Shown here piece after piece: positions 24,271 to 64,000 of a stretch of 64,000 nucleotides of DNA. Source of the DNA: Octopus vulgaris (taxonomy: Eukaryota); contig OX597817.1 in the NCBI GenBank assembly GCA_951406725.2, positions 176,328,001-176,392,000 of the forward strand. Direction: 5' to 3'. A model generated the notes under the pieces. It saw only the letters and a program-made list of their open reading frames with translations. It was not told where the DNA came from and searched no databases. Made by a program: the position numbers and the translations under genes. The stretch's first letter is position 1; the number at the start of each line of letters is the position of its first letter.

Positions 24271-25000
24271 ATATATTTGTTAGTGTTAACACCATTGTAG
24301 GATAGAAAAAGAATATGTTTTAATTGATTATAGGTCCTAGATTAGCATTTAAGATGTTTTGGAAAGAAATTTTTGTCTGTATGAAAAATAACTTGTATTT
24401 CTTGTACAAAAAGTACTGTAGAATCAATCAGCTGAGTAGAGAAATGGCAGTTTATTAGCTGATAGTTTTATTTTTTTATTTTTACATTCTACTTTTTAAA
24501 AAACAAAAAGACATCAAAGTCCAATACTTGGGTTTCTGTCGGATTCAAATTTACAAAAGTGTAGACATTGATGACGGGGATGAAAATAGCAAATTTCAAT
24601 TAATATGTCTGTGTAAATTTGGTATTGATTTGTGTATGTATGTATGTATGTGTGTGTGTGTGTGTGTGTGTGTGCATACATATAGTTTCCATATAAAAAC
24701 ATACACCTATATGCAGAAATATACAATCTTACATTTATAATGTTAAATAATGTCTGTGTGCGTGTGTGTGTGTGTGTATAATGTATGTATATACATTCAA
24801 ATTCACATTAAAAAAAACACCTACATATACAATATAATCTAATGAATCTAAATCTGGATTGTTTAAAATCTTTAATAGTGTTTTGAAAATAAGTTTTAGA
24901 TTCATTATCTGAATGATATGCAGATGGTTGTAACCAGAATCTTCTGAGCACATCTGTATTATAAAGATGAATGTTAACCAGTGATTATGATGTGAATGGT

Positions 25001-25174
25001 TCAAGAAATAGTGATGACTACTTTGTTGGGCCGTTTCAGCTGGCTTTCTCGTACCAATGCTGCTAACATGCTGTTTTCATTCATTAATAATTCAGAAGCT
25101 TTATCAAATTCCACAATTCTACCTTGATCTAATACCATAACACGGTCATAATCATTTAGATGAGTCAGATGATG
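25001..25174 (-). CDS. ABCC (SUR/ABCC8-9-like) gene, terminal coding exon: HHLTHLNDYDRVMVLDQGRIVEFDKASELL...VITIS*
   Basis: Acceptor tttactttccag, 58 codons including TGA, and the typical ABCC C-terminal pattern (DRVMVLDQGRIVEFD). Confidence 0.9.
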   Translation of the reverse strand, partial: HHLTHLNDYDRVMVLDQGRIVEFDKASELLMNENSMLAALVRESQLKRPNKVVITIS

Positions 25175-25439
25175 CTGGAAAGTAAAGAAAACATCACATA
25201 TAATGACAGAATTAAGAATCAAAAGGCATCTCCAATACCATAATACACCACACACACTTAGTGTTCCCACAATGCAATACTACACATCACCTTACGCAAT
25301 ATAACTCTATCCACAATGTTGCCACAACATGTGTGCATGCACACATATCACCTTTTATAATATATCTTAAAGGACCAAGATGCTTGACACCTCACTGTAC
25401 TCAAGAAGGCCCATACCCCACAGCAGAAGCAATAAGGCT

Positions 25440-25660
25440 GCTCCCTCTGGTGAAGATGATTTACCTGCAAGAGTCTTGTGCAGTACCACATAAAAACACC
25501 CAGCATATTCTGTAAAGTGGTTGGTGTTAGGAAGGTCATCCAGCTGTAGAAACCATAGCAAGTCAGACTGCAGTCTGGTGCAGTTCTCCAACTTGCCAGC
25601 TCTGGTCAAACCATCCAATTCATGCCAGCAGGGAAAACAGACGTTAAATAACAATGATGA
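25440..25660 (+). mobile_element. Old, degraded RTE-type 3' end in ABCC intron
   Basis: GTGGTTGGTGTTAGGAAGGTCATCCAGCTGTAGAAAC ... GACGTTAAATAACAATGATGA matches the RTE tail at 10400-10545. Confidence 0.65.
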
Positions 25661-26076
25661 TCTTAACCCTACATAATACCCAGATTATTTGAAATTATCA
25701 CGCTGTCCCTAAACTTTGTGTCCCACCAGTAAATGATGGTCTCAGGTTAATGTTTCCATCTGTGAATCATTCCTTACCATTTTAGGAGCAACCTTCAGTT
25801 CTAAAGAGCTGCCTACACACAATTGAGTCTTTCAACTTGGAAGACAACATGGCTTCTGTTTGTTAACACTTAAGAATGAACAAGCTAATTTATCAACAAG
25901 GTACAGGAATTACTATAATTAATGGGAGTGTGGAGAAGCAAAGGATAATTTAAGAATTGAATTAGAATTTAATAACAATTGGTTAGTAAGAGGACTTAGT
26001 CTAAAATTCATTTGAAGGAGGAGAGATATAGTAAAATGTTTTTTTTTATGAAGGAATAACATTTTAAAGAGTATTG

Positions 26077-26183
26077 TGGACTCATCAATAAGGGATTGGA
26101 TTCACAAATAAGGGGTTGGACTCACCAGTAAGGGGTTGGACTCACCAGTAAGGGGTTAGATGCATCAGTAAGGGGTTTGACTA
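26077..26183. repeat. 20-bp intronic minisatellite (~5 copies)
   Basis: AAGGGGTTGGACTCACCAGT and variants in tandem. Confidence 0.8.
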
Positions 26184-26536
26184 AAACTACAAGTCAATGG
26201 ACTGGACACTTTTGCCAGCACAAATCCTTCTGCCCTGGATCAGCTGACATTCTGCATATTTGACAGCATTGTTGATTTACATTGCTGTGTTCAAATCTTA
26301 CCTTTGCTGTGGTTTGAAGAAATACTTGTCAAGCTATACACAATGCCTCCAAATCTACACACACACACACACACTCACACACACATACACATGCACAATG
26401 TAGGAGGCACTTACATATGTGCTAAGGAAATTTGAGTTATTTCAATGAATATATGTTTAAATAATTGGTTTTAAAATAAATTTAAGTTAATACAATCCTT
26501 TAATATATTCAGGATTTGAAAATAAAGTTCACTCAC

Positions 26537-26683
26537 CAAAGTCACAAGAACGGTGGAATCCCTGAACACAGTGTGGATGAGGTCCTGAATGGTTTCCTCC
26601 ATCAAGGCATCATCGTTGGTGTGTTCCTGCTCCACAATAACTATTTTACTGTCTCTCATATAAGCTTGAGCAAAACAGAAAAG
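26537..26683 (-). CDS. ABCC gene exon (Walker B region): LFCFAQAYMRDSKIVIVEQEHTNDD...FRDSTVLVTL
   Basis: tttacag acceptor, gtgagt donor, 147 nt, phase 0/0. Aligns to the SUR pattern QLFCLARAF...IMDEATASID...FADRTVVTIAH. Confidence 0.9.
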
Positions 26684-26877
26684 CTGTAAAAGAAACAAGG
26701 ATTACATATATTTAAGTCACACACATAATGAGGAAACTTTCCCAGGGAGTCAAACACAATGACTGTACAAGGTTGGTTTTGAACATACGATCTTGTGGTC
26801 AATTATTTAATCTAATACCTTCATGTAATAAACATCGGCTAAAGGAAATGAACAATTAAAACATTTGAAAATCTCAC

Positions 26878-26927
26878 CTGTCTTTGGCCAATAGTAAATT
26901 CCTTGCCTTCATGGAGGACAACAGTTT
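26878..26927 (-). CDS. ABCC gene exon (ABC signature region): (E)TVVLHEGKEFTIGQRQ
   Basis: ctctccacag acceptor, gtgaga donor, 50 nt. The phases fit both neighbours. Not in the ORF track. Confidence 0.9.
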
Positions 26928-28835
26928 CTGTGGAGAGAAATATCACTGGTAAAAATAACCATATAAACGATAATTTCAACTGTTTGGGCACAAATTACAA
27001 GCTACATCTGACAGTGTTTAGGGTAACACAGATTAGAGGCTAGAGGTAAGTGTTTGAGATAACACAGATTATGGGATATCTAGCTTACAACATTTGGGGT
27101 AACACAGATTACAGAATTCAGACAAAATAGTGTTCAATATTAAGGGCAACTTCGACTGTGTACTTCTGAGTGTCTCTTTGAAATGTTAAGCAGTTATACA
27201 GGAAATCCTAATTAACCACATTGAAGGGGTCTCATGGTTATAGCTGCTAAAAGAGAGTACCCAGATATAATATAAAGTGCTGACAGGGGCAGCCTTAACC
27301 TTGCAGAAACTCTGTGTGTGTGTCTGCATGCGCGCGCACACACACAATAAACACAGATAGGTTATTGTTTATTCTTCACCTAACTTGGAACCTTCCATGC
27401 ATTTGGATCTGGAGTTTGTGCAGTGAGTGTACCCCCGTGTGACTTTGAATGCATACTGTGTATTCTGTAAGTACTTGTGTGTGTGTGCATAACTGGAAGG
27501 ACAAATCCATATTTACTTTAGTAAGTATGTACATGTCAATATCCCCAACTCTACCTTGCTGCTTTTGCTATCTAAATACTCTGATTCCACCAAATCCTGA
27601 AAATTTTAATTCTATATAAATATATATATACAGATAGATGGGTGTGTTGTGATCGTGAGATAAATATTAGTATGGAATACCAAAAAAAGAAAAAAAAAGT
27701 CTTTCTAATGACTACAACTTGCACTTGTTTTCGACACAATGATAGGTGCACCATATACCCCATTCCATCATCCATTAGTGTTCTAAGTTCTTCATCAATC
27801 ATAGCAGCATTGCATTTCATTAGTTTTGACCATGGTCTTGGAAGGACACTCCACAGTTCATCATGCCATGTGTCAATTTGGCTGGTGAGCAACCCTGGCT
27901 GCCTCAAACAATGACTTTATTAAACAGCAACTATTGTCTTATTTGTCAACTGAAATAAGGTTGCTACAGAGTTATTTACTGGTCATTTTCTGCAATTTGA
28001 GTGAGCTTCAAGAGATGCTAGGGACTTAGTGAGGGTCCAGGTTTCTCATCCATAAAAAAAGATTGCTGCAACTATGAAAATTCACTGGCTGTAAGTCCAG
28101 ATAGGCTTCATTTCATTGAATTTACTTTCTAGCTAAGGCCTCTGTGTATTTTGCTGTCCATTTATGTTCTTGCTACTAGTGAACTGTGGTCAGTTAATTA
28201 TCAGGACACAAAAACCAATTGAATGGTTTCAACAGAGAGAAAATTGACCTACATTCATAAGGCAACTATGTTCACCAAACCCATTTCTTCTCCATAAGTA
28301 GAACCAGTTACCAATGAGTTCTGCAATGGCTTTTTAAGACCAATGAGGGAATTCTACCTGCTAGAAATAACAGCCAAATCTCCCCTCCAATTACACCCTA
28401 ACATGTGAACAAAAGAAAAGTACATTAATATTATAACAGACCTCTCTATGAAGATCATGATTTGAACAACTAAGATAAAGGTTGACCTGGGGCTAAACAA
28501 CAACAGCAGATGTAAGCTTCCCTGTCTACCTTTGGTTTAATGTCCAAATTAATGAAATTCCTCCGAGTAACGAACTGCTGACTGAGAATAATAACAGGAA
28601 ACCCTTCAGAATGTGTTACATTCAATCAACATATTTAAGTGTCAAAGTAGTTTAAAATGTCTTCTCAGAGATCTTAATCAGGTTAATCAGCTGTTGAAAG
28701 TATATGTAAGATCAGTTTGGAGTTTACCTATGAGGGTCAGTTTGACATTATATATAACAAAAGGAAGGTGTGTGTGTGATTATTGATGTGTCAAGCAATG
28801 GCAATCCTAAAAATACAACATCTCTATCAACATAC

Positions 28836-28918
28836 CCAGTTTATGGGGAAGCTCTTGAACTGTGCTTTTCATTTGAACTGCATTCAAAGCTTCCCAAATC
28901 TCTGGATCGAGATTGAAC
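28836..28918 (-). CDS. ABCC gene exon: (R)FNLDPEIWEALNAVQMKSTVQELPHKL(E)
   Basis: gtttttcag acceptor, gtatg donor, 83 nt, phase 2/1. Contains the NLDP and IWEAL motifs. Confidence 0.9.
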
Positions 28919-29520
28919 CTGAAAAACAAAACATTTCTGACATCGGCATTAACTGACTCTCTTTATGTTTGCTTGGTTTTAGTTTAATACAGGTTTACTT
29001 AATATACAAATTCATAGATTTACACAAGTTGTTCAAACTGTTATTTTAATAAAATTTGATAATGCTTCATTTGAGTAGAAGCTTAACTGTGTCTTAAGTT
29101 TAAAGTGACAGGCTAGATGTATCTGGCATATTTGAGCTATGACATTTGGCCAGTTATTTCTGTATCTACTTCAACACAGTTTCAAATTCCAGAATCTATT
29201 CATACCTCAACCCTGAACCTCAGTGGTTTTATACTCACCTCTGATAAAGTATGTATTTCTACAGCAACAAATCAATCAGTTAGTAATCTGCCACTCTATC
29301 CAATTTAGCAGTTCGTCTCTTTAGCTAATTTACTATTTACTCCTAAAGTATTACTCAAAGAAGATTAAAATTTTTGTGAAAAGCTGAACAACTGCAAATG
29401 TAAACACAGATTCCATTTGGTCCACATCACAGTTTTACAATGATAGATACAATTTATAGAGACAGACAACATGTTGAGTTTGGAATAATGTAGATTTGAA
29501 ATGATGAATGAGAAACTCAC

Positions 29521-29708
29521 CTGACTGTTCTGTCAAACATGATTGGGTCGTGGGGTACAATGGAAAGACGAGATCTCAGAACTTGGGACGGCACAACTGA
29601 TATGTCCTGATAGTTTATCAAGATCTTTCCTTCATGTACATGGATCATCTTGAATAAGGATAAGATGAGAGATGATCGCCCACTCCCAGCATGTCCACAG
29701 AAGGCCAC
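29521..29708 (-). CDS. ABCC gene exon (Walker A to Q-loop): VAFCGHAGSGRSSL...LRSRLSIVPHDPIMFDRTV(R)
   Basis: tatttcaag acceptor, gtgagt donor, 188 nt, phase 0/2. The LRSRLSI motif is typical of SUR/MRP NBD2. Confidence 0.92.
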
Positions 29709-30516
29709 CTTGAAATATAGAAAAACAACAAACTGCTGTGTAACTGGCAGCAATAGAAGGAACACACACAACCACTGTCACCATGACTAACCACCTCTAG
29801 ACTAGTCATCATCCCAGCACTAACATTACTAAATATAACCATCAACATCTTCAGCATCACTCCACCTTTGCATAACATACACAAACCAACAAAAGAGCTG
29901 ATGTGTGGTCACGTGACCAGCTAGATAGGGGTAATGTCACATGACCAGCTAGATAGGGTAATGTCACATGATCATGTGATTGACCAAACTACTGAATGTT
30001 ATACATCACTGGTCACAATGCACCTTGCATTGTTTTAGCTTTCGAATTATGATCGGAAGGCTTGTCCATCATGGGGTTATTCATTTACAATTGTATAGAC
30101 TAGAGCAATATGAAATGAAGTGTTCCTAATCTGGGAATTCAACCCACTACCTAGCAATTGTAAGTGCAACACCCTAACCACTAGCTCACATACCCTCACA
30201 GATATAGTAATATAATCTTCCTGAAATAACACACTACCATCAAGACATACATTATTTCTGAAAAAAAAAAATGACAGGTGGAACATCTTTGATCAAAAGT
30301 TTGTTTGATCAGGGTTATATATATATCGCATATCCCACAATATTACCAGACAAAGCTTTAAGCTATCCACCATCTTTACAGTAAGTCCTTCTCTACCAGT
30401 TCTTGCTAGTTGTATGGAGAGGAATCACTCCCAAAGAAATGATCAGTTATTACCACAGCGTAAGTCTGTAATTAACCACCTCTACCATCACCATCACAAA
30501 CAACAAGATTTGTTAC

Positions 30517-30647
30517 CTTTTCCGCATCTTTTATAGTAAAAGTGGCATCCATAACAGCGGGGCTCTGTTCAGGATCATAGTTTAAGGCAATATGTTGAAA
30601 TTCAATGTCACCAACATCTGGCCAAGACTCAGGTACCTCAATGCAAT
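30517..30647 (-). CDS. ABCC gene exon (start of NBD2): CIEVPESWPDVGDIEFQHIALNYDPEQSPAVMDATFTIKDAEK
   Basis: tatattacag acceptor, gtaaca donor, 131 nt, phase 1/0. Matches the WPxxGxIEF...Y...EK pattern that opens ABCC NBD2. Confidence 0.9.
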
Positions 30648-31219
30648 CTGTAATATAAAGACAAAAGCGAAATAACATTTTAGAATAAAGGCAAGTTAGA
30701 TACTAAACTCTAATTTTAAAAAATACATAATTAATCTATTTGACTAAAATAGCATTTCTACTTTGCAAACAATAATTTAGGGAGGGAGTTTTGTAGGAGT
30801 ATTGCTACATTCCATTGACAATATATAATTTGCTTCACAAATCCCTACAAATAACCGACCTTCCCTAATTATCCAATTTATATTCGATTTAAAGAAATGG
30901 ACTGAAGAAAATCTATGTCCACCTGATGAAACTCTTCAAGTAGAAGAGTATCAATAGTTGGCTCTTCTGATACTATTAAATTCTCAAACAAAATTTCTTT
31001 TTAGAAGCTATTTAATCCTACCAACTTGCACAGCACATACAACTGTATTGCCTTCTGATGATAAGACAGTCAAATGTTTCAACTCAAATGTCTTAGTTTT
31101 GCTCTTACAAATAATGTTGCATGTTTCCAACATGGATAATCTTATTTATGTGATGTGAAATGTGGTGTCATCACATCAGCATCATTTTTTTTGTTTTTTT
31201 TGTTTCCCATGTTGACATA

Positions 31220-32150
31220 AATTGCGCAAGATACCCAAATCCTACCAATTGTCAGTGGGTGATATATGGGGACTTTTAAGATGGTTAATTTTCTCTGGAG
31301 CAACAAAGTGGATACACCAAATATCCATGCTTTTTATGTAGGTGGAACGGCAGAGGGAAAAACATTGGCTGATCAAAGAATGACCACAGTGAAGATTAGT
31401 TCCAGGATCTTTTAATGTCGTTGAAAAGCCTTTTTAGTTCAACTGGGAAAAATCATCCTACCTCCACTCCATATCAAACTTGGCATTTGTTAGAATTCAG
31501 GATAAAGATGGAACTTTCACTATTTATGCAGCAGATTTCCGAATCTGAGAAGTGAAAGATAAAAGCTGACATATTTTGATGGATCTCAAATCAGAAAATT
31601 AGTGAAAGATGGGAACTTTGTAAATTCAATGAATTGCACTGAAGCATCAATATGGAATTCATTTGTAATAGCTGTAAAAGAATTTCTGGGCAACAAGTAA
31701 GCAGCCAACTGTACCGAAATAGTCAACAACAAGCTAGAGAACTTGCAAAAGTTAGGAGCAAAATATGATCATAAGGCTGCACTATCTCCACAGTGACTTT
31801 GATGAATTCCCTGAAAATCTTGGTGACACAAATAGGGAAGATATTCCTATCAGGACATAAAAATCAATGGAATAATGGTGGATGGCACTTGCATATGATG
31901 GTGGACTATTGCTGGAACTTAGTTCAAGATCTCCCTCAAGTTCAGCACTCAAGAAAATCATCCAAACTACAAATTCATGGGTAATTAGACATAAACAATG
32001 ATGTAATTTGTCTATATGGATTTAAAGACTTTTACTAGATTTTCAACTGAATTTTAAGAAAGCATTCTGGTTTTGATGTGATGGTAATAAATGGATATAA
32101 TTATCAGATTCCATATCTCAAAAAACCCCTAGTTCAGGTCCAAAATTTTT
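31220..32150 (+). mobile_element. Decayed DNA transposon, Chapaev3 (CMC)-like transposase remnant
   Basis: Frameshifted pieces read GYTKYPCFLC, IILPPLHIKLG, FDGSQIRKL, KEFLGNK, LHYLHS, FPENLGD and MMVDYCW. The order and the C2C / LH / H-x-H motifs fit Chapaev3-type transposases. Confidence 0.7.
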
Positions 32151-32194
32151 GACAAGAGATAAAAATATTTTGTTGGCTTGTGTTATGTGTGTAT

Positions 32195-32271
<77 letters not shown>

Positions 32272-32317
32272 CATACATACATACATACATACATACATAC
32301 ATACATACATACATACA

Positions 32318-32350
<33 letters not shown>

Positions 32351-32835
32351 GTATGTGTGTGCATGTATCTGTGCACACACACATATTTTTAAAACTTTCC
32401 AACTGATTAGTATATATTCCAGTTGTTTACATTCTGAATTCAAATCCTGTCTTGAGCCTTAACCTGTCATTCAGTTTAATGCCACCACTTTAGGGGAGTC
32501 AACTCAGTTCAGGCTAGCCCGTCCCCCAGTTTGGAAACCCCGGCCCATGATTCTCAGAGGCCTTGTAAAAGATCATGGACACTGCTTTCCTCCTATTAAA
32601 GAAGTTAAAAAGAAACACACACACACACACACTTTTGAATTTACAATTAAATTTTTTTTCAAAAAGTACTCAAAACAAAATTAGAGTGTGTATATTTAAA
32701 TCGTCCTTTCGTTGTTGCAGATTTTTAATGCACATAACTATCATGATACTGACAACAATGTTGTGATTGTTACATAATAAATACTTTAAAAAAGAAATTT
32801 AATTTAGATTCGATGAGAAATATATTCTAAATGTA

Positions 32836-33005
32836 GGCACAGGAGTGGCTGTGTGGTAAGTATCTTGCTTACCAACCACATGGTTCCGGGTTCAGTCCCA
32901 CTGCGTGATACCTTGGGCAAGTGTCTTCTACTATAGCCTCGGGCCGACCAAAGCCTTGTGAGTGGATTTGGTAGACGGAAACTGAAAGAAACCCGTCGTA
33001 TATAT
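32836..33005 (+). mobile_element. SINE family A 5' half (its 3' half is at 34901-35130)
   Basis: The head matches 4501-4665, and the element resumes after the RTE insertion. Confidence 0.85.
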
Positions 33006-33027
33006 GCATATATGTATATATATATAT

Positions 33028-34900
33028 ATCATCATCATCGTTTAACGTCCGTTCTCCGCGCTAGCACGGGTTGGACGGTTCGACGGGGGTCTGGGAAGCC
33101 AGGGGCTGCACCAGGCTCCAGTCTGATCTGGCAGTGTTTCTACAGCTGGATGCCCTTCCTAACGCCAACCACTCCGCGAGTGTAGTGGGTGCTTTTTACG
33201 TGCCACCGGCACAGGTGCCAGGGGAGTCTGGCATCATCCACGATCGGTTGGTGCTTTTAACGTGCCACCGGCACGGAAGCCAGTCAAGGTGGCGCTGGCA
33301 TCGGCCACGTTCGGATGGTGCTTTTTATGTGCCACCGGCACGGAAGCCAGTCAAGGTGGCGCTGGCATCGGCCACGTTCGGATGGTGCTTTTTATGTGCC
33401 ACCGACACAGGTATCACAATTACTATTTCCATTGATATTTATTTCGATGTTCATGTACTTGAATCAATAGGTCTCCTCAAGCACAGCGGGATGTTCTGGT
33501 ATCCAAGGTACTTTGAATGGGCAGGGGCTATGCGGGACTGGTGCAGGAAGCAGCCCGGGTCTTTGCAGTCACAGCATATCTCCAGAGATCTCGGTCCTTT
33601 GTCATTGCCTCTGTGAGGCCCAACGCTCTGAGGTCATGCTTGACTACCTCATCCCATGTCTTCCTGGGTCTTCCTCTCCCCCTAATACCTTCAACTGTTT
33701 GGGAGCGGCACTTCTTCACACATCTCTCCTCATCCATCTGCAGTACATGACCATACCATCACAAGCGTTGCTCTTGCACACCACATTTGATGCTTCTTAT
33801 GTCCAGCATTTCTCTCAGGGTGCTTACCCTCTGTCGTGCACGCACACTGACATTACACAACCAGCGGATCATGCTAGCTTCATTCTTTTCAAGTCTACGC
33901 ATGTCCTCTGCAGTCACAGCCCATGTTTCACTACCGTGAAACATGGCAGTTTGCACACATGCATCATACAATCTACCTTTCACTCTGAGCGAGAGACCCT
34001 TTGTCGCCAGTAGGGGTAGGAGCTTTCTAAACTTTGCCCAGGCTATTCGTATTCTAGTGGTGACACTCTCTGAGCATCCACCTCCACTACTAACTTGGTC
34101 ACCCAGGTAGCGGAAACTATCAACTACTTCTAGTTTCTCCTCTTGGAGTGTGATGGAATCTGTTTTCTGAGTATCTGTGGTGTCTATTGTCCCTGTGCAT
34201 CTGCCGCACATGAAAGCTATCTTATCAGTTAATTTCCCTTTGATGTTGCTGCACCTCTTATGCGTCCATAGCTTACACTGGGTACATCTTATGGAGTTTC
34301 TACCTACGACTTTCCTACAGATCGAGCAGGGCCACCTGCCCGAGGGGGTGTGTGCTGAGTTCGCCTTTCTGCTCACTATAACTTTGGTCTTTGCTACATT
34401 TACTCTAAGGCCCTTTGATTCTAACCCTTGCTTCCACACCCGCAATTTCTTTTCTAGTTCCGGTAGTGATTCTGCTATGAGAGCCAGGTCATCAGCATAG
34501 AGGAGCTCCCAGGGGCAACCTGCTTTGAATTCCTCTGTTATTGCCTGGAGGACTATGATGAATAAAAGGGGACTGAGGGCTGAGCCTTGGTGTACACCTA
34601 CTTCTACCCGGAATTCTTCACTATATTCGTTGCCAATTCTAACCTTGCTAACAGCCTCTCTATATAGGGCCTGTACAGCCCTTATTAGCCATTCATCAAT
34701 CTCCAGTTTCCACATCGACCACCAGATAAGGGATCGGGGGACCCTGTCAAAGGCTTTCTCCAAGTCCACAAAAGCTATGTAGAGGGGTTTATCTTTAGCT
34801 AGGTATTTCTCCTGCAGTTGTCGGACCAGGAATATAGCATCAGTGGTGCTTCTACCTGGCACAAAACCGAACTGCATCTCATCTAAGCAAATTCTCTCCC
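33028..34900 (-). mobile_element. RTE-clade LINE copy 3, 5'-truncated (RT + PHD-like finger + 3' UTR), nested in a SINE
   Basis: ORFs 33759..34877(-) and 33528..33737(-) are highly similar to copy 2 (YADD, FRYLG). The 3' UTR has four GTGCCGGTGGCAC-type modules and a (GAT)n tail. It is a distinct subfamily, since the proximal UTR differs. Confidence 0.95.
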
Positions 34901-34931
<31 letters not shown>

Positions 34932-35130
34932 TCTGTGTTTGTCCCCCTAGCATTGCTTGACAACCGATGCTGGTGTGTTTATGTCCCCGTCACTTAGCGG
35001 TTTGGCAAAAGAGACCGATAGAATAGGTACTGGGCTTACAAAGAATGAGTCCCGGGGTCGAGTTACTCGATTAAAGGCGGTGCTCCAGCATGGCCGCAGT
35101 CAAATGACTGAAACAAGTAAAAGAGTAGAG
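34901..35130 (+). mobile_element. SINE family A 3' half
   Basis: Matches 4685-4898. Confidence 0.85.
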
Positions 35131-35607
35131 AGTATCATATTGTAGTTTTCTCGTCACTGTAGCAAAGAATGAATTGCTGACAGGTGGAAGGTCATCTCAC
35201 GTTTTTACTAAATCACAGAAATTGGTTTATTATAATAAAAGAGTCGACAAAGACATGGGTGCATGCATAAAGGCATTCGTTATGCTTGCACAAAATACAT
35301 GCAAACACAAGGAAACATTCACAGGTGATTGTGTTCATGCAAATACCGAAATTGGAATAAACATGCATGTAGTCCCATACACACAGACACAGAACACATG
35401 TATATACAAACCTACATACAGCCATACAAACAAACATACAAGCATACATCTGAAATTGTCAAAAAAACACTTAGCGTTTCTACATCAGACTTAAAACATT
35501 AAACTGTTTTCTACAGAAAATACACAAAAATCAAATAAAATCATATTCTAAAAATATATAGTCCTTTGTCTCCATGAAGTATGTGTGAGGTGTATGGTAG
35601 TACCATA

Positions 35608-35911
35608 TTTCTTCAAATAAGTAGCTTCCTTTGGTCATGAATGACCATGGGATGACACCTAGTAAGTTCTCCTCCGAGGCACAAGTCCAGGCAAGGTTGT
35701 TTATGGAAGACCAGCAGTCAAACATGTATACCAGCCTCCCCTCTCTACACCACCAATGTTATCCAAGGGAACGACAAAGGCCGATACAGCTTGGCACCAG
35801 TGACATTGCAATTCATATCTACAGCTCAATGAACTGGAGCAACGTGAAATAAAGTGTCTTGCTCAAGAACACAACATGCAACCCGGTCTAGGAATTGAAC
35901 TCACTACCTCA
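35608..35911 (-). mobile_element. tRNA-derived SINE (family D), diverged
   Basis: The minus strand has GAGTTCAATTCC (B box), then CTTGAGCAAGACACTTTATTTCACGTTGCTCCAG, a typical SINE post-tRNA conserved domain. Confidence 0.6.
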
Positions 35912-60260: not shown

Positions 60261-60688
60261 TGTTTCTTTATTAGCCACACAGGGCTGCACACAGATAGAA
60301 CAAATTACAAGGTAGAGCTTTTCTTTTGAAGGTTTTAAGAAAAAAAAAAAAAGAAAAGGAAGGGGGAGTTTCGATCAAAAGGGATCGTAAAAGGAGAGAA
60401 AGAGGACAAAAAGAAGGGGGTTAAAAGAAAGGGGAGAGGAAAAAAATTGATCAATAGGGATCGTTATCACAGAAATGTCAATATGAAGTGTAAAGGGGAG
60501 GACAGGTGAGGTTTACCCGTGGAAAGAAAAAACTACGGAAAAGACCACGGTAACCTCGGACAATGAAGTCACATTTTATATTTCTTTTTTTTTTTTTTTT
60601 TTTTTTGCAAATAAGCAACTCTCTGTTTTCGATTTCTGGGTTCATAGGACAATGCTCAAGGTGGCTTCGTCATTCATACGTGCCATTA
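60261..60688 (-). mobile_element. 3' terminal fragment of a non-LTR retrotransposon (possibly L1/Tx1-like) inserted in the microsatellite
   Basis: The minus strand gives an apparent ORF end (...ARMNDEATLSIVL*, stop at 60642), a pyrimidine-rich 3' UTR and AATAAA (60267-60272) next to the (TAA)n flank. The clade is a guess. Confidence 0.55.
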
Positions 60689-60698
60689 TTAATAATAA

Positions 60699-60751
<53 letters not shown>

Positions 60752-60752
60752 C

Positions 60753-60806
<54 letters not shown>

Positions 60807-61077
60807 GTGTAGGAGTAGTAGTAGTAGTAATATTAATAGTAATAATAATAATAAAAATAATAATATTAATGATAATGATAATGATAATGAAAATAATAAT
60901 ATTAACAATAATGATAAAATTAATAATAATAATAATGATAAAAACATTATTAGTAATAGTTGTAGTAGTAGTAGTAGTAATAGTAATAGTAATTGTAATA
61001 ATAATATTAATAATAATTATAGTAGTAGTAGTTGTAGTTGTTGTAGTAGTAGTAATATTAATAGTAATATTAGTAGT

Positions 61078-61108
<31 letters not shown>

Positions 61109-61548
61109 GTAGTAGTATTGTTGTAACAGAAGTAGTAGTAGTAGTAGAAGTAGTGGTAGTAGCAGTAGTAGTAGAATTAGTATTAGTAATAATATTAATA
61201 ATAATAATAATAATAGTAGTAATAATAATAAGAATTAGAATAATATTAATAATAATAGTAGAAGTAGTAGTAATAGTAGTAGTTGTAATAGTAATAGTAG
61301 TATTAGTAGTAGTAGTAGTCGTAGTAATAATAATAATAATGATAATAAAAATAATAATGATAAAAATAATAATAAGATGAATAATGGCAGTAGTAGTAGT
61401 TGTAGTAATTGTAGTAGAAGTAATAGTAATTGTAATAATACTAATAATAATAAGAATAAGAATAAGAATGATATTAATAATAGTACTTGTATAGTATTAA
61501 TAGTAGTAGTAGTAGCATTAGTAGTAGTAGTAATATTAATGATAATAT

Positions 61549-61580
<32 letters not shown>

Positions 61581-62713
61581 TAATAATAATGATAATAATA
61601 ATAAGAATAGTAGTAGTAGTAGTAGTAGTAGTAAAAATAATAATAATATTAATAATAATAATAATAATGTTAATATTAATATTAATAATGATAATAATAA
61701 TAGTAGTAGTAGTAGTAGGTGTAGTGGTAGTTGTAGTAGTAATAGTAATATTAATGCTAATAGTAATAATAATAGTAATAGTAATTTTAATAATAATAAT
61801 AATAATAATATTTGTAGTAGTAGTAGTAGTAGTAGAAATAATAGTAATAAATATAATCATCATAATAATATTAATAATTATAATAATAATAATATTAATA
61901 ATAATAATAATAGCAGTAGTAGTAGTAGTAGTAGTAGTTGTAGTTTTATTGGTTGTAATAGAAATAATAATAATAATAATAATGATAATAGTAGTAGTAG
62001 TAGTAGAAGAAGTAGTAGTAATAGTAGTAGTAGTATTAGTCGTAGTAACAGTAGTAGTAATAGTGGTAGTAGTAGTACTACTGCTAGTAGTAGTATTTAA
62101 GGTAATAGTTATATTAATAATAAAAATAATAATAACAATAATAATAATATCATGAATAATATTAGTTGTAGTAGTAGTAGTAGTAGTGTTATTATTATTA
62201 TTATTATTATTATCATTATTATATTATCTATCATTATCATTTTCATTATCTTTATCATTATTATTACTATTACTACTACTACTATTACTACCACTACTAC
62301 TACTACCACTACTACTACTACTACTACTAATAATAATAATAATAATAATGATAATAATAATAATAATATTAATAATAATAATAATAATAATAGTAGTAGT
62401 AGTAATAGTAATTGTAATAATAATAAGTATGGTAGTAGTAGTAGTAGTTATAATAATAATAATATTAATAATAATATTAAGGATAATAATAATAATATTA
62501 AAAATGATTATAATAACATTAACAGGAGTAGTAGTAGTAGTAATAGTATTTTAATAGTATATTATTAATAACTATAATAATAATAGTAACAATAACAATA
62601 CGAATAATAGTAGTAGTAGTAGTTGTAGTAGAAGTAGTACTTTTATTATTGCTATTAATATTTCAATTATTATTACGGGTACTATTACTACTACTATTAT
62701 TATTAATATTATT

Positions 62714-62757
<44 letters not shown>

Positions 62758-63057
62758 TACAATTACTACTACTACTACTAATACTTCTACAAGTACAACT
62801 ACTACTACTACTACTACTACTACTACTGTTATCATTATTATTATTACTATGACAAATACTATTACTATTATTATTATTAATATAATGATTATTGTTATTA
62901 TCATAATCATTATCAATATTATTATTATTATTATTATCATTATTGCTATTACCATTATTATAAAAATTATTAATACCATTACAATTACTACTATTACTAC
63001 TAATACTATTACTAATATTATTATTGTTATTATAAATATTGTTATTTCTATATTATT

Positions 63058-63100
<43 letters not shown>

Positions 63101-63492
63101 GTAGTAATAGCAGTAGAAGTATTAGATGTAACAGTAGTAGTAGTAGTCATAGTAGTAATATTATTATCATTAGTAGTAGTAGTCGTCCTAATAGTAGTGC
63201 TAGTAGTATTAGTAGGATTAGTAATGGTAATAATAGTAAAATTAATAGTAATAGTAATAGTAATAATAATAATAATAATAATAATGGTAATGATAATTAT
63301 GGGAGTAGAAGTAGTAGTAGTACTGTTACTAATACTATTACTATTAATATTTCAACTACTACTCCTACTACTACTACTACTACTAATACTACTACTAATA
63401 TTATTCTTATTATTATCATTATTATTATTACTATTACTACGACAACTACTACTACTACAATGAAACTACTACTAGTACTGTTGTTATTATTA

Positions 63493-63527
<35 letters not shown>

Positions 63528-64000
63528 ATCACTATTATTATTATTATTATTATCTTTATTACTATTACTGCTGCCACTAAAACTACTAATGCTACTACTA
63601 TTACTATAATTATTATTATTATAATTATTATCATAATAATAATAATTATTTTTATTATTACTAATATTACTATTACTATTATTACTACTACTACTACTTT
63701 TCCTTCTGCTAATACTACTACTGCTACTACTACTACTACTACTAATATTGATATCATTATAATTATGATTATAATTATTATTATTAGTATTATTATTATC
63801 ATTATCATTATTAGTATTATTAATATTATTATTATTACAATTAATATTACTATTACAATTACTATTACTAATTCTACTATTATTACTATTACTACTACTA
63901 ATACTACTACTACTACTATTATTATTATTATTATAATTATTAATATTTATATTAATTATAATAATAATAATATTAATAATAATATGAAGAAGAAGAATAG

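Follow-up and report, generated by a model that had tools for sequence, protein, structure and literature searches.

Does an ABC protein whose second nucleotide-binding domain (NBD2) has lost its catalytic residues represent a conserved regulator, or only a gene copy in decay? The question is raised by a 64,000-nucleotide stretch of the Octopus vulgaris genome (contig OX597817.1, positions 176,328,001 to 176,392,000 of the forward strand; hereafter the window), where six minus-strand exons encode the NBD2 of an ABCC protein resembling SUR1 and SUR2 (ABCC8 and ABCC9), the regulatory subunits of ATP-sensitive potassium (KATP) channels. An earlier note, made from the sequence alone, had proposed a pseudo-ATPase with intact exon structure. 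Our comparisons point to an answer in two layers: the altered motifs are those of a full-length gene conserved across coleoid cephalopods, whereas the copy in the window is in all probability a pseudogene. Taken as a whole, with the parent protein as a non-hydrolysing SUR that docks on a channel, this explanation is one in which we have moderate confidence.

Six exons for an altered NBD2

The six exons (Table 1) have AG acceptors throughout, GT donors at the five intervening introns, and compatible phases, as the earlier note had described. When joined they form a single open frame of 256 amino acids ending in TAA, and the codons of the motifs reported in the note could each be located on the minus strand. 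Walker A reads GHAGSGRS with an Arg codon (CGA, 29678-29676), the Q-loop reads PHDP with a His codon (CAC, 29552-29550), and Walker B carries Glu (GAG, 26632-26630) followed by Gln (CAG, 26629-26627); the A-loop Tyr and the switch His (25174-25172) are present. The Arg and the His are both found coleoid-wide. Exon 2 by itself exceeds the Pfam ABC_tran cut-off and among solved structures matches SUR2 best (E 1.6e-16), and thus the NBD2 observation is not a chance resemblance. In a search with exon 2 we obtained five relatives, full-length or partial, the best being a 1,797-amino-acid “ABCC9-like” protein of Octopus sinensis. The window NBD2 is identical to that of O. sinensis at 253 of 257 aligned residues, and its C-terminus agrees with O. 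sinensis and O. vulgaris, not with O. bimaculoides. A metagenome scan with exon 2 gave 596 pattern matches, none of which was confirmed.

An intact coleoid gene with both nucleotide sites altered

GHAGSGRS, PHDP, and VEQEHT are identical in O. sinensis, O. vulgaris, O. bimaculoides, Argonauta hians, Sepia pharaonis, and two decapodiform-like clusters that do not group with the octopods; one of these clusters includes a Sepia member. In a regular-expression screen of 445 proteins, each of the 29 coleoid records that include an NBD2 carried the altered motifs; this number counts isoforms and near-identical transcripts and corresponds to about six or seven independent taxa. The screen also matched 55 non-coleoid records, at what appear from the printed contexts to be non-motif sites. 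By contrast, the NBD2 Lys, Gln, Asp, and Glu are retained in 46 of 46 non-coleoid SUR and MRP rows (24 other molluscs, an annelid, a brachiopod, arthropods, deuterostomes, and six MRP outgroups).

In SUR proteins, site 2 is formed by the Walker motifs of NBD2 together with the LSGGQ signature of NBD1 (PMC5940251; literature is cited here and below from excerpts of the sources). A canonical site 2 is lacking in six of six coleoid rows, where the Arg, His, and Glu-Gln of NBD2 face an NBD1 signature changed from LSGGQ to LTEGQ; Ser-Gly is kept in 45 of 45 ungapped non-coleoid rows. Coleoid NBD1 retains the Walker A Lys, the Q-loop Gln, and the Walker B Asp, and is without the A-loop Trp, the D-loop Asp, and the switch His. 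A degenerate site 1 of the SUR type is also present, with IIMDDP in NBD1 and FTIGQ or FSVGQ in NBD2. Neither site is canonical by sequence, and the one hydrolysis-competent site that characterizes an exporter of the MRP type is not found. In addition, the coupling-helix residues Phe, Gly, and Arg at 1316, 1323, and 1328 of the second transmembrane domain (TMD2) are changed in coleoids. The FTIGQ signature, previously listed among the marks of a dead site 2, does not belong there: it is one residue from the FSVGQ of SUR2, which decapodiforms keep, and it serves the degenerate site 1.

The decapodiform-like full-length open reading frames (ORFs) sit on contigs of 5.5-7.6 kb, which would mean that the sequence is spliced and that the gene is transcribed in those animals. 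The dead NBD2 motifs are a property of an intact coleoid gene and not of decay in the window. The earlier proposal of an ABCC protein with a non-canonical NBD2 therefore stands for this conserved gene, though not for the locus on which it was based.

The parent gene as the coleoid orthologue of molluscan SUR

Coleoid proteins fall inside the SUR clade (support 0.98), apart from MRP1/2-type ABCC proteins, and form the sister clade of gastropod plus bivalve SUR (FastTree 1.00, 52 proteins; IQ-TREE SH-aLRT 100, 25 proteins). Trees built from TMD0-L0, TMD1, or TMD2 give the same placement (0.83-0.98). The parent protein has a SUR-type TMD0 and L0, both absent from the window copy, and 66-69 of 174 TMD0 positions are identical to Bufo SUR1, compared to 59-73 in canonical molluscs and 9-30 in MRP rows, the latter on fewer aligned columns. 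The first TMD0 helix and the Glu of YHNxE, both of which matter for Kir6.2 in SUR1, are kept SUR1-like. As judged from these trees and alignments, which include ABCC8 and ABCC9 and bear out the family assignment made earlier, the parent gene is the coleoid orthologue of the molluscan SUR.

The SUR search gave one cluster per named mollusc species among the matches listed, except for two each in Biomphalaria and the genus Mytilus. The named matches listed (best 120 of 122; best 120 of 1,435) include no canonical cephalopod SUR, a weak negative given that the 1,435-match search missed the O. sinensis 1,797-amino-acid protein (P0005), P0006, and the Lingula protein. Of 149 other representatives, 29 stood out by a mollusc-like best match or odd motifs, and the six of these that were named are a bivalve, a limpet, and four echinoderms. 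No Nautilus sequence is among the retrieved relatives. A high-scoring Lingula model (P0157), considered as a dead orthologue outside the cephalopods, was rejected because it has two canonical NBD2 copies; this repeated NBD2 and the Kir Pfam domains fused to ABCC9 in Kryptolebias P0056 are both probable annotation artefacts.

Several features of SUR proteins were noted in passing. The linkers of molluscan SURs (O. sinensis residues 691-855 and 1086-1200) are about twice the vertebrate length, and 9 of 10 molluscan rows have RRxS/T kinase-type sites in them, compared to none in human SUR2, toad SUR1, or Owenia. In Octopus, the acidic linker contains a small, alternatively spliced exon. Five SUR-like proteins of decapod crustaceans (P0067, P0068, P0071, P0072, and P0080) have Ala or Ser in place of the second Asp of the NBD1 Walker B and HG at the NBD2 switch, with the site-2 Lys, Gln, Asp, and Glu intact.

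A burst of change in the ABC core, followed by constraint

We counted sites that are at least 93% invariant outside coleoids and at which all six coleoid rows differ. These amount to 20 of 68 in NBD2, 11 of 56 in NBD1, 7 of 25 in TMD1, and 6 of 31 in TMD2, compared to 0 of 7 in TMD0 and 0 of 2 in L0, although the absence of change in TMD0/L0 is based on only nine sites and to that extent tempers our reading. Mean identity to six outgroups was also calculated for four coleoids and for 23 other molluscs (Ylistrum left out). Coleoids match the other molluscs in TMD0 (41.0 vs 40.2%) and L0 (35.6 vs 36.8%), and are lower in TMD1 (30.9 vs 36.1%), TMD2 (31.5 vs 39.3%), NBD1 (41.1 vs 51.9%), and NBD2 (41.8 vs 53.7%). 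By these measures, TMD0/L0 evolved at the normal molluscan rate and the burst is confined to the ABC core.

Within coleoids, NBD2 is the best-conserved domain. In this domain O. sinensis shares 86-87% of residues with the two decapodiform-like proteins (81% in TMD0), compared to 56-76% for NBD2 in three gastropod pairs. The coleoid stem of NBD2 measures 0.90 and its crown distance 0.17; the fastest change on the stem is seen in TMD1 (0.97) and TMD2 (1.14). The altered NBD2 is apparently held by purifying selection, or by similarly strong constraint, since the change on the coleoid stem. In the AlphaFold model the O. sinensis NBD2 has a mean predicted local distance difference test (pLDDT) score of 87 and lies 1.3 Å from the NBD2 of SUR2B over 245 columns, figures to be read with some reserve because the underlying alignment consists mostly of canonical homologues and the model leans to the canonical fold. 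A structure comparison ranked MRP5 first, with other ABCC proteins close. It is plausible from the model that the coleoid NBD2 fold is intact.

How a coleoid SUR might work

In ABC sites, the phosphates are bound by the Walker A Lys, and of the two Walker B acids the first coordinates Mg and the second activates the water (PMC5940251). MgADP at NBD2 drives NBD dimerization and activation. The mutation K1384A impairs activation of SUR1 channels by Mg-nucleotides (10.1101/402206). Coleoid site 2 is without its phosphate-binding Lys, Q-loop Gln, Mg-binding Asp, catalytic Glu, and the opposing Ser-Gly of LSGGQ. With all of these changed, hydrolysis is very unlikely and MgADP-driven closure of the NBDs has probably been lost, and with it the resulting channel activation. 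We consider it highly likely, from the motifs, that the parent protein has no meaningful ATP turnover and that hydrolysis at site 2 was lost on the coleoid stem. With the Walker A Lys, the Q-loop Gln, and the Walker B Asp all kept, site 1 may continue to bind ATP, presumably more weakly in view of the lost A-loop Trp and switch His.

The docking module presents a different picture. Kir6.2 is contacted chiefly through the first helix of TMD0, and its gating is altered by TMD0 on its own (PMC5940251). We predict that coleoid TMD0-L0 still attaches to the pore of a channel, most likely a Kir, and determines how that channel is trafficked and gated. That site 2 is dismantled while this module is untouched favors a non-hydrolysing channel subunit uncoupled from nucleotides. 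Within such a docking subunit, NBD2 could have been retained to provide a fixed surface for structure or for binding, a role that is, in our judgment, an even call. Bolder still is the proposal that coleoids have a single SUR, a full-length ABC protein without any working ATPase site, in which site 2 and its coupling to the membrane domains were dismantled on the stem while NBD2 became fixed as a binding surface of a new kind; this is possible, and we put it forward tentatively.

Several observations weigh against the picture of an uncoupled docking subunit. Single-domain NBD trees leave the sister group of the coleoids unsettled, and the coleoid stem is long (0.84). The coleoid protein is likely the only SUR of these animals, but a second, canonical one is possible, and conservation of TMD0 could serve a partner other than Kir. 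NBD2 retains its A-loop Tyr, switch His, and P-loop glycines. Furthermore, switching of SUR1 needs no hydrolysis, and E1506Q alone raises its affinity for MgATP (KT 0.9 µM vs about 200 µM; PMC4397924), while nucleotide binding at NBS2 is independent of Mg and K1384A shifts binding only with Mg (10.1101/402206). These SUR1 data imply that coleoid site 2 may still bind nucleotide.

The main rival reading builds on the same data. It holds that site 2 has been retuned by its Arg, His, and Glu-Gln to Mg-free ATP or another ligand, and that the NBD dimer still closes and gates the channel as a sensor that works by binding only. If SUR1 switches on binding and holds MgATP more tightly with E1506Q (PMC4397924), then an NBD2 that keeps its A-loop Tyr, switch His, and glycine P-loop, that is the best-conserved domain, and whose new residues are invariant in coleoids might do likewise; in nature the degenerate site of ABCG5/G8 also has Arg for the Walker A Lys (PMC7756269). 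However, the Ser-Gly of the opposing signature, which packs on the phosphates, is replaced by Thr-Glu, and the D-loop Asp, A-loop Trp, and switch His of NBD1 are changed along with the coupling-helix residues of TMD2. These changes suggest that the coupling path itself has been dismantled. We regard a binding-only sensor as unlikely, while granting it a real chance.

The third reading is that the intact protein no longer serves Kir and has become a passive conduit, as in CFTR, or a scaffold or chaperone for another membrane protein. TMD1 and TMD2 are indeed the fastest domains on the coleoid stem, cavity-lining positions included, such as a Trp in TM17 that is changed in coleoids but kept in the nine non-coleoid rows compared except for one MRP2 row. 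The several RRxS/T sites in the linkers could also be cited for such a role, but gastropods and most bivalves have them too, and the coleoid TMD0 is as SUR1-like as that of canonical molluscs. We find this departure from Kir distinctly improbable.

The window locus as a probable decayed partial duplicate

The window preserves only a fragment of the SUR gene. Just seven exons of the ~1,800-amino-acid Octopus ABCC9-like gene are present in the 64 kb, as determined by tblastn with the 1,797-amino-acid O. sinensis protein and by a scan with 10-residue tiles of the longest O. sinensis isoform; the remaining tile matches are low-complexity and lie inside microsatellites. The same searches found no TMD2 exons (residues ~1162-1533, about 370 residues) anywhere in the window, and nothing of TMD0, TMD1, or NBD1 in the 27 kb of it that lie upstream of the seventh exon. 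The seventh exon, which encodes part of the NBD1-TMD2 linker, has a TAG stop where Gln is found in 24 of 24 coleoid records covering the position. It is followed by ATAAGT, and the GT donor is absent. Its end was placed by comparing exon-skipping and exon-including isoforms and lies 1-2 bases past Leu-Glu-Glu; neither candidate end is followed by GT. The exon structure is thus intact within the six NBD2 exons, as first described, and broken just upstream.

The NBD2 exons carry further lesions in the form of four window-only substitutions and a 7-residue gap. Two of the substitutions alter Gly1637 and Arg1697, positions that never vary in the 52 aligned proteins, and each of the four could be explained by one transition. 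The residues reported missing after NLDP number exactly seven relative to O. sinensis XP_036369028. The gap lies between two Asp-Pro-Glu repeats, a position that would fit slippage. None of 52 aligned proteins and none of 25 coleoid records shares it; it is a lesion of the window copy and cannot serve as a mark of a pseudo-ATPase. A cryptic micro-exon for these residues was rejected, because the gap is inside the exon, six codons past its start, and its flanks have no splice sites.

A related fragment may exist in O. sinensis. A non-coding stretch just upstream of NBD2 exon 1 translates into the first 37 residues of XP_029654666, with 37 of 37 identical. This 301-amino-acid “ABCC8-like” model lies on a 238,963-base scaffold and corresponds to a second, 3′-only copy; its opening 37 residues bear no relation to the ABCC family. 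A Val codon of the parent is Ala in the window and Thr in XP_029654666. These similarities suggest that the two loci are related partial copies, and XP_029654666 is probably a false gene model.

Full-length gene models are found on sequences of 29-46 Mb in O. sinensis, O. vulgaris, and O. bimaculoides. The window copy shows what is expected of a duplicated pseudogene, namely retained introns, disabling lesions, and an intact parent elsewhere. Very probably it is a truncated pseudogene of the unprocessed kind, which arose when the 3′ part of the Octopus SUR gene was duplicated as a segment, and which lost TMD2 and has been accumulating lesions. One reservation is that the lesions of the window copy are known from this one assembly alone: the stretch 24900-31200 is partly present in 20 of 24 listed sequencing runs, and to at least half of its length in nine, but copy and parent are indistinguishable in these data. 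The edge of the duplicated segment may be marked by a 19-base satellite, which starts 430 bases further upstream than the orphan linker exon.

Alternatively, the locus might be a real gene that was mis-assembled, or a functional short gene for a free NBD2. Six open exons with canonical splice sites and near identity to O. sinensis are what such a gene would show, satellite-rich regions are the kind of place where assemblies fail, and RefSeq contains the 301-amino-acid protein model from a similar copy. Nevertheless, that model begins in sequence unrelated to the family, full-length models exist on large sequences in three Octopus species, two lesions fall at universally invariant residues, and the lesions as a group are several independent single transitions plus a deletion between repeats, with no scattered indels. 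We judge a real gene at this position to have only a slim chance. That the dead motifs are merely the decay of this duplicate, or are restored by A-to-I editing, has practically no chance, since, decaying duplicate though the locus is, the same residues occur in all 29 coleoid NBD2 records, presumably spliced full-length ORFs included, and A-to-G changes in CGA, CAC, GAG, and CAG never yield Lys, Gln, Asp, or Glu. The decaying duplicate that the earlier note had set against its own proposal is very probably what the window holds, but orthologues with canonical motifs, also named there, are not what coleoids have.

Other features of the window

The rest of the window is rich in repeats (Table 1). 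In the LINE-like elements we see both endonuclease pieces and ORFs for reverse transcriptase, the latter with a weak PHD-like match (80% alike over 1.3 kb). Kilobase-long degenerate trinucleotide tracts give rise to many spurious long ORFs.

Table 1. Positions of the SUR-derived exons, their lesions, and repeats in the 64,000-nucleotide window
Feature	Position	Strand	Remarks
NBD2 exon 1	30517..30647	-	WP motif and A-loop Tyr (30579-30577)
NBD2 exon 2	29521..29708	-	Walker A GHAGSGRS and Q-loop PHDP
NBD2 exon 3	28836..28918	-	in-frame loss of 7 residues, window-only
NBD2 exon 4	26878..26927	-	signature FTIGQ, site 1
NBD2 exon 5	26537..26683	-	Walker B / D-loop IVIVEQEHTNDD, coleoid-wide; TNED in Argonauta
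Last exon	25000..25174	-	switch His, C-terminus, stop; as in O. sinensis and O. vulgaris
Val>Ala, window-only	30558-30556	-	NBD2 exon 1
Gly>Arg (G1637R), window-only	29531-29529	-	NBD2 exon 2
Arg>Gln (R1697Q), window-only	26668-26666	-	NBD2 exon 5
Arg>His, window-only	26575-26573	-	NBD2 exon 5
Upstream non-coding stretch	31023..31133	-	translation equals first 37 residues of XP_029654666
Gap where TMD2 exons are expected	30648..36586	-	5.9 kb; LINE-like reverse-transcriptase remnant 33762-34946 (PF00078)
Orphan NBD1-TMD2 linker exon	36587..36674	-	residues ~1132-1160 of intact protein; TAG stop 36638-36636
19-base satellite	37104-41853		about 257 copies
LINE-like element	91-828	-	
LINE-like element	6900-7376	+	
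LINE-like element	8304-9737	+	
LINE-like element	33762-34946	-	
Degenerate (TAA)n/(TAG)n/(ATT)n tracts	11837-16398 and 57076-63959		
Local duplications	43500-50850		0.7-1.1 kb, 82-92% identity
22-base satellite	52830-56774		about 176 copies

Meaning for channel regulation

Whether SUR site 2 acts through hydrolysis or through mere nucleotide binding is a long-running question of the KATP field (PMC5940251, PMC4397924). A natural SUR stripped of every site-2 catalytic residue, whose NBD2 nonetheless stays so alike between octopods and decapodiforms, offers a ready test. These two lineages separated roughly 270 million years ago. If coleoids indeed have a single, dead SUR, then octopus, squid, and cuttlefish would be without MgADP-activated KATP channels, and their SUR would be a channel subunit uncoupled from nucleotides and perhaps controlled by phosphorylation or by partners. 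A further prediction is that excitability in the heart, muscle, and nerve of cephalopods is under a metabolic control unlike that of other molluscs.

There are also consequences for annotation. The database label “ABCC9-like” conceals the altered site 2, and the window locus is a warning that partial duplicates of the SUR gene yield false short gene models.

Comparison with known systems

A coleoid-wide SUR with neither nucleotide site canonical is apparently an undescribed feature. By title and the start of the abstract, we found among the matches listed no literature on cephalopod SUR, ABCC9, or KATP, most subscription journals and supplements being outside the scope of the search, and no title listed concerned an ABC protein with both sites dead. 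Transcripts for SUR, Kir, and TRPM4 have been reported from crab ganglia (PMC11577616).

The closest relatives are the ABCC9-like proteins of gastropods and bivalves (Haliotis XP_046564179, Pomacea PVD32870), which form the sister clade and share the long linkers. Their TMD0 is 55-57% identical to that of coleoids in the two pairs measured, but canonical NBD2 motifs are kept in 24 of 24 rows, and LSGGQ or MSGGQ in 23 of 23 ungapped ones. Vertebrate SUR1 and SUR2 resemble the coleoid protein in the TMD0-L0-TMD1-NBD1-TMD2-NBD2 layout, the SUR-type N-terminus, the degenerate site 1, the FSVGQ-like signature, the acidic NBD1-TMD2 linker, and membership in the same clade. However, they keep a canonical, slowly hydrolysing, MgADP-sensing site 2, whereas the coleoid site has lost its Lys, Gln, Asp, Glu, and LSGGQ, and the site-1 A-loop Trp and switch His are lost in coleoids as well.

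Single degenerate sites are well described among ABC proteins. ABCG5/G8, yeast Pdr5, and NBS1 of ABCC proteins have a site made non-hydrolysing by changes of the Walker A Lys to Arg (ABCG5/G8) or Cys, and of Walker B, the switch, or the signature, with all motifs altered in Pdr5 (PMC7756269). In these cases, as described there, the second site is canonical and drives transport, while in the coleoid SUR neither site is canonical. CFTR (ABCC7) is likewise an ABCC protein that left active transport; unlike the coleoid protein, it has no TMD0 and retains a hydrolysing site 2 that ends bursts. A further comparison is offered by the “mini-KATP” assembled from Kir6.2 and TMD0 or TMD0/L0 only, in which TMD0 shapes the channel and no nucleotide sites are at work (PMC5940251). 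These constructs are laboratory truncations, whereas the coleoid protein keeps its entire ABC core under strong constraint.

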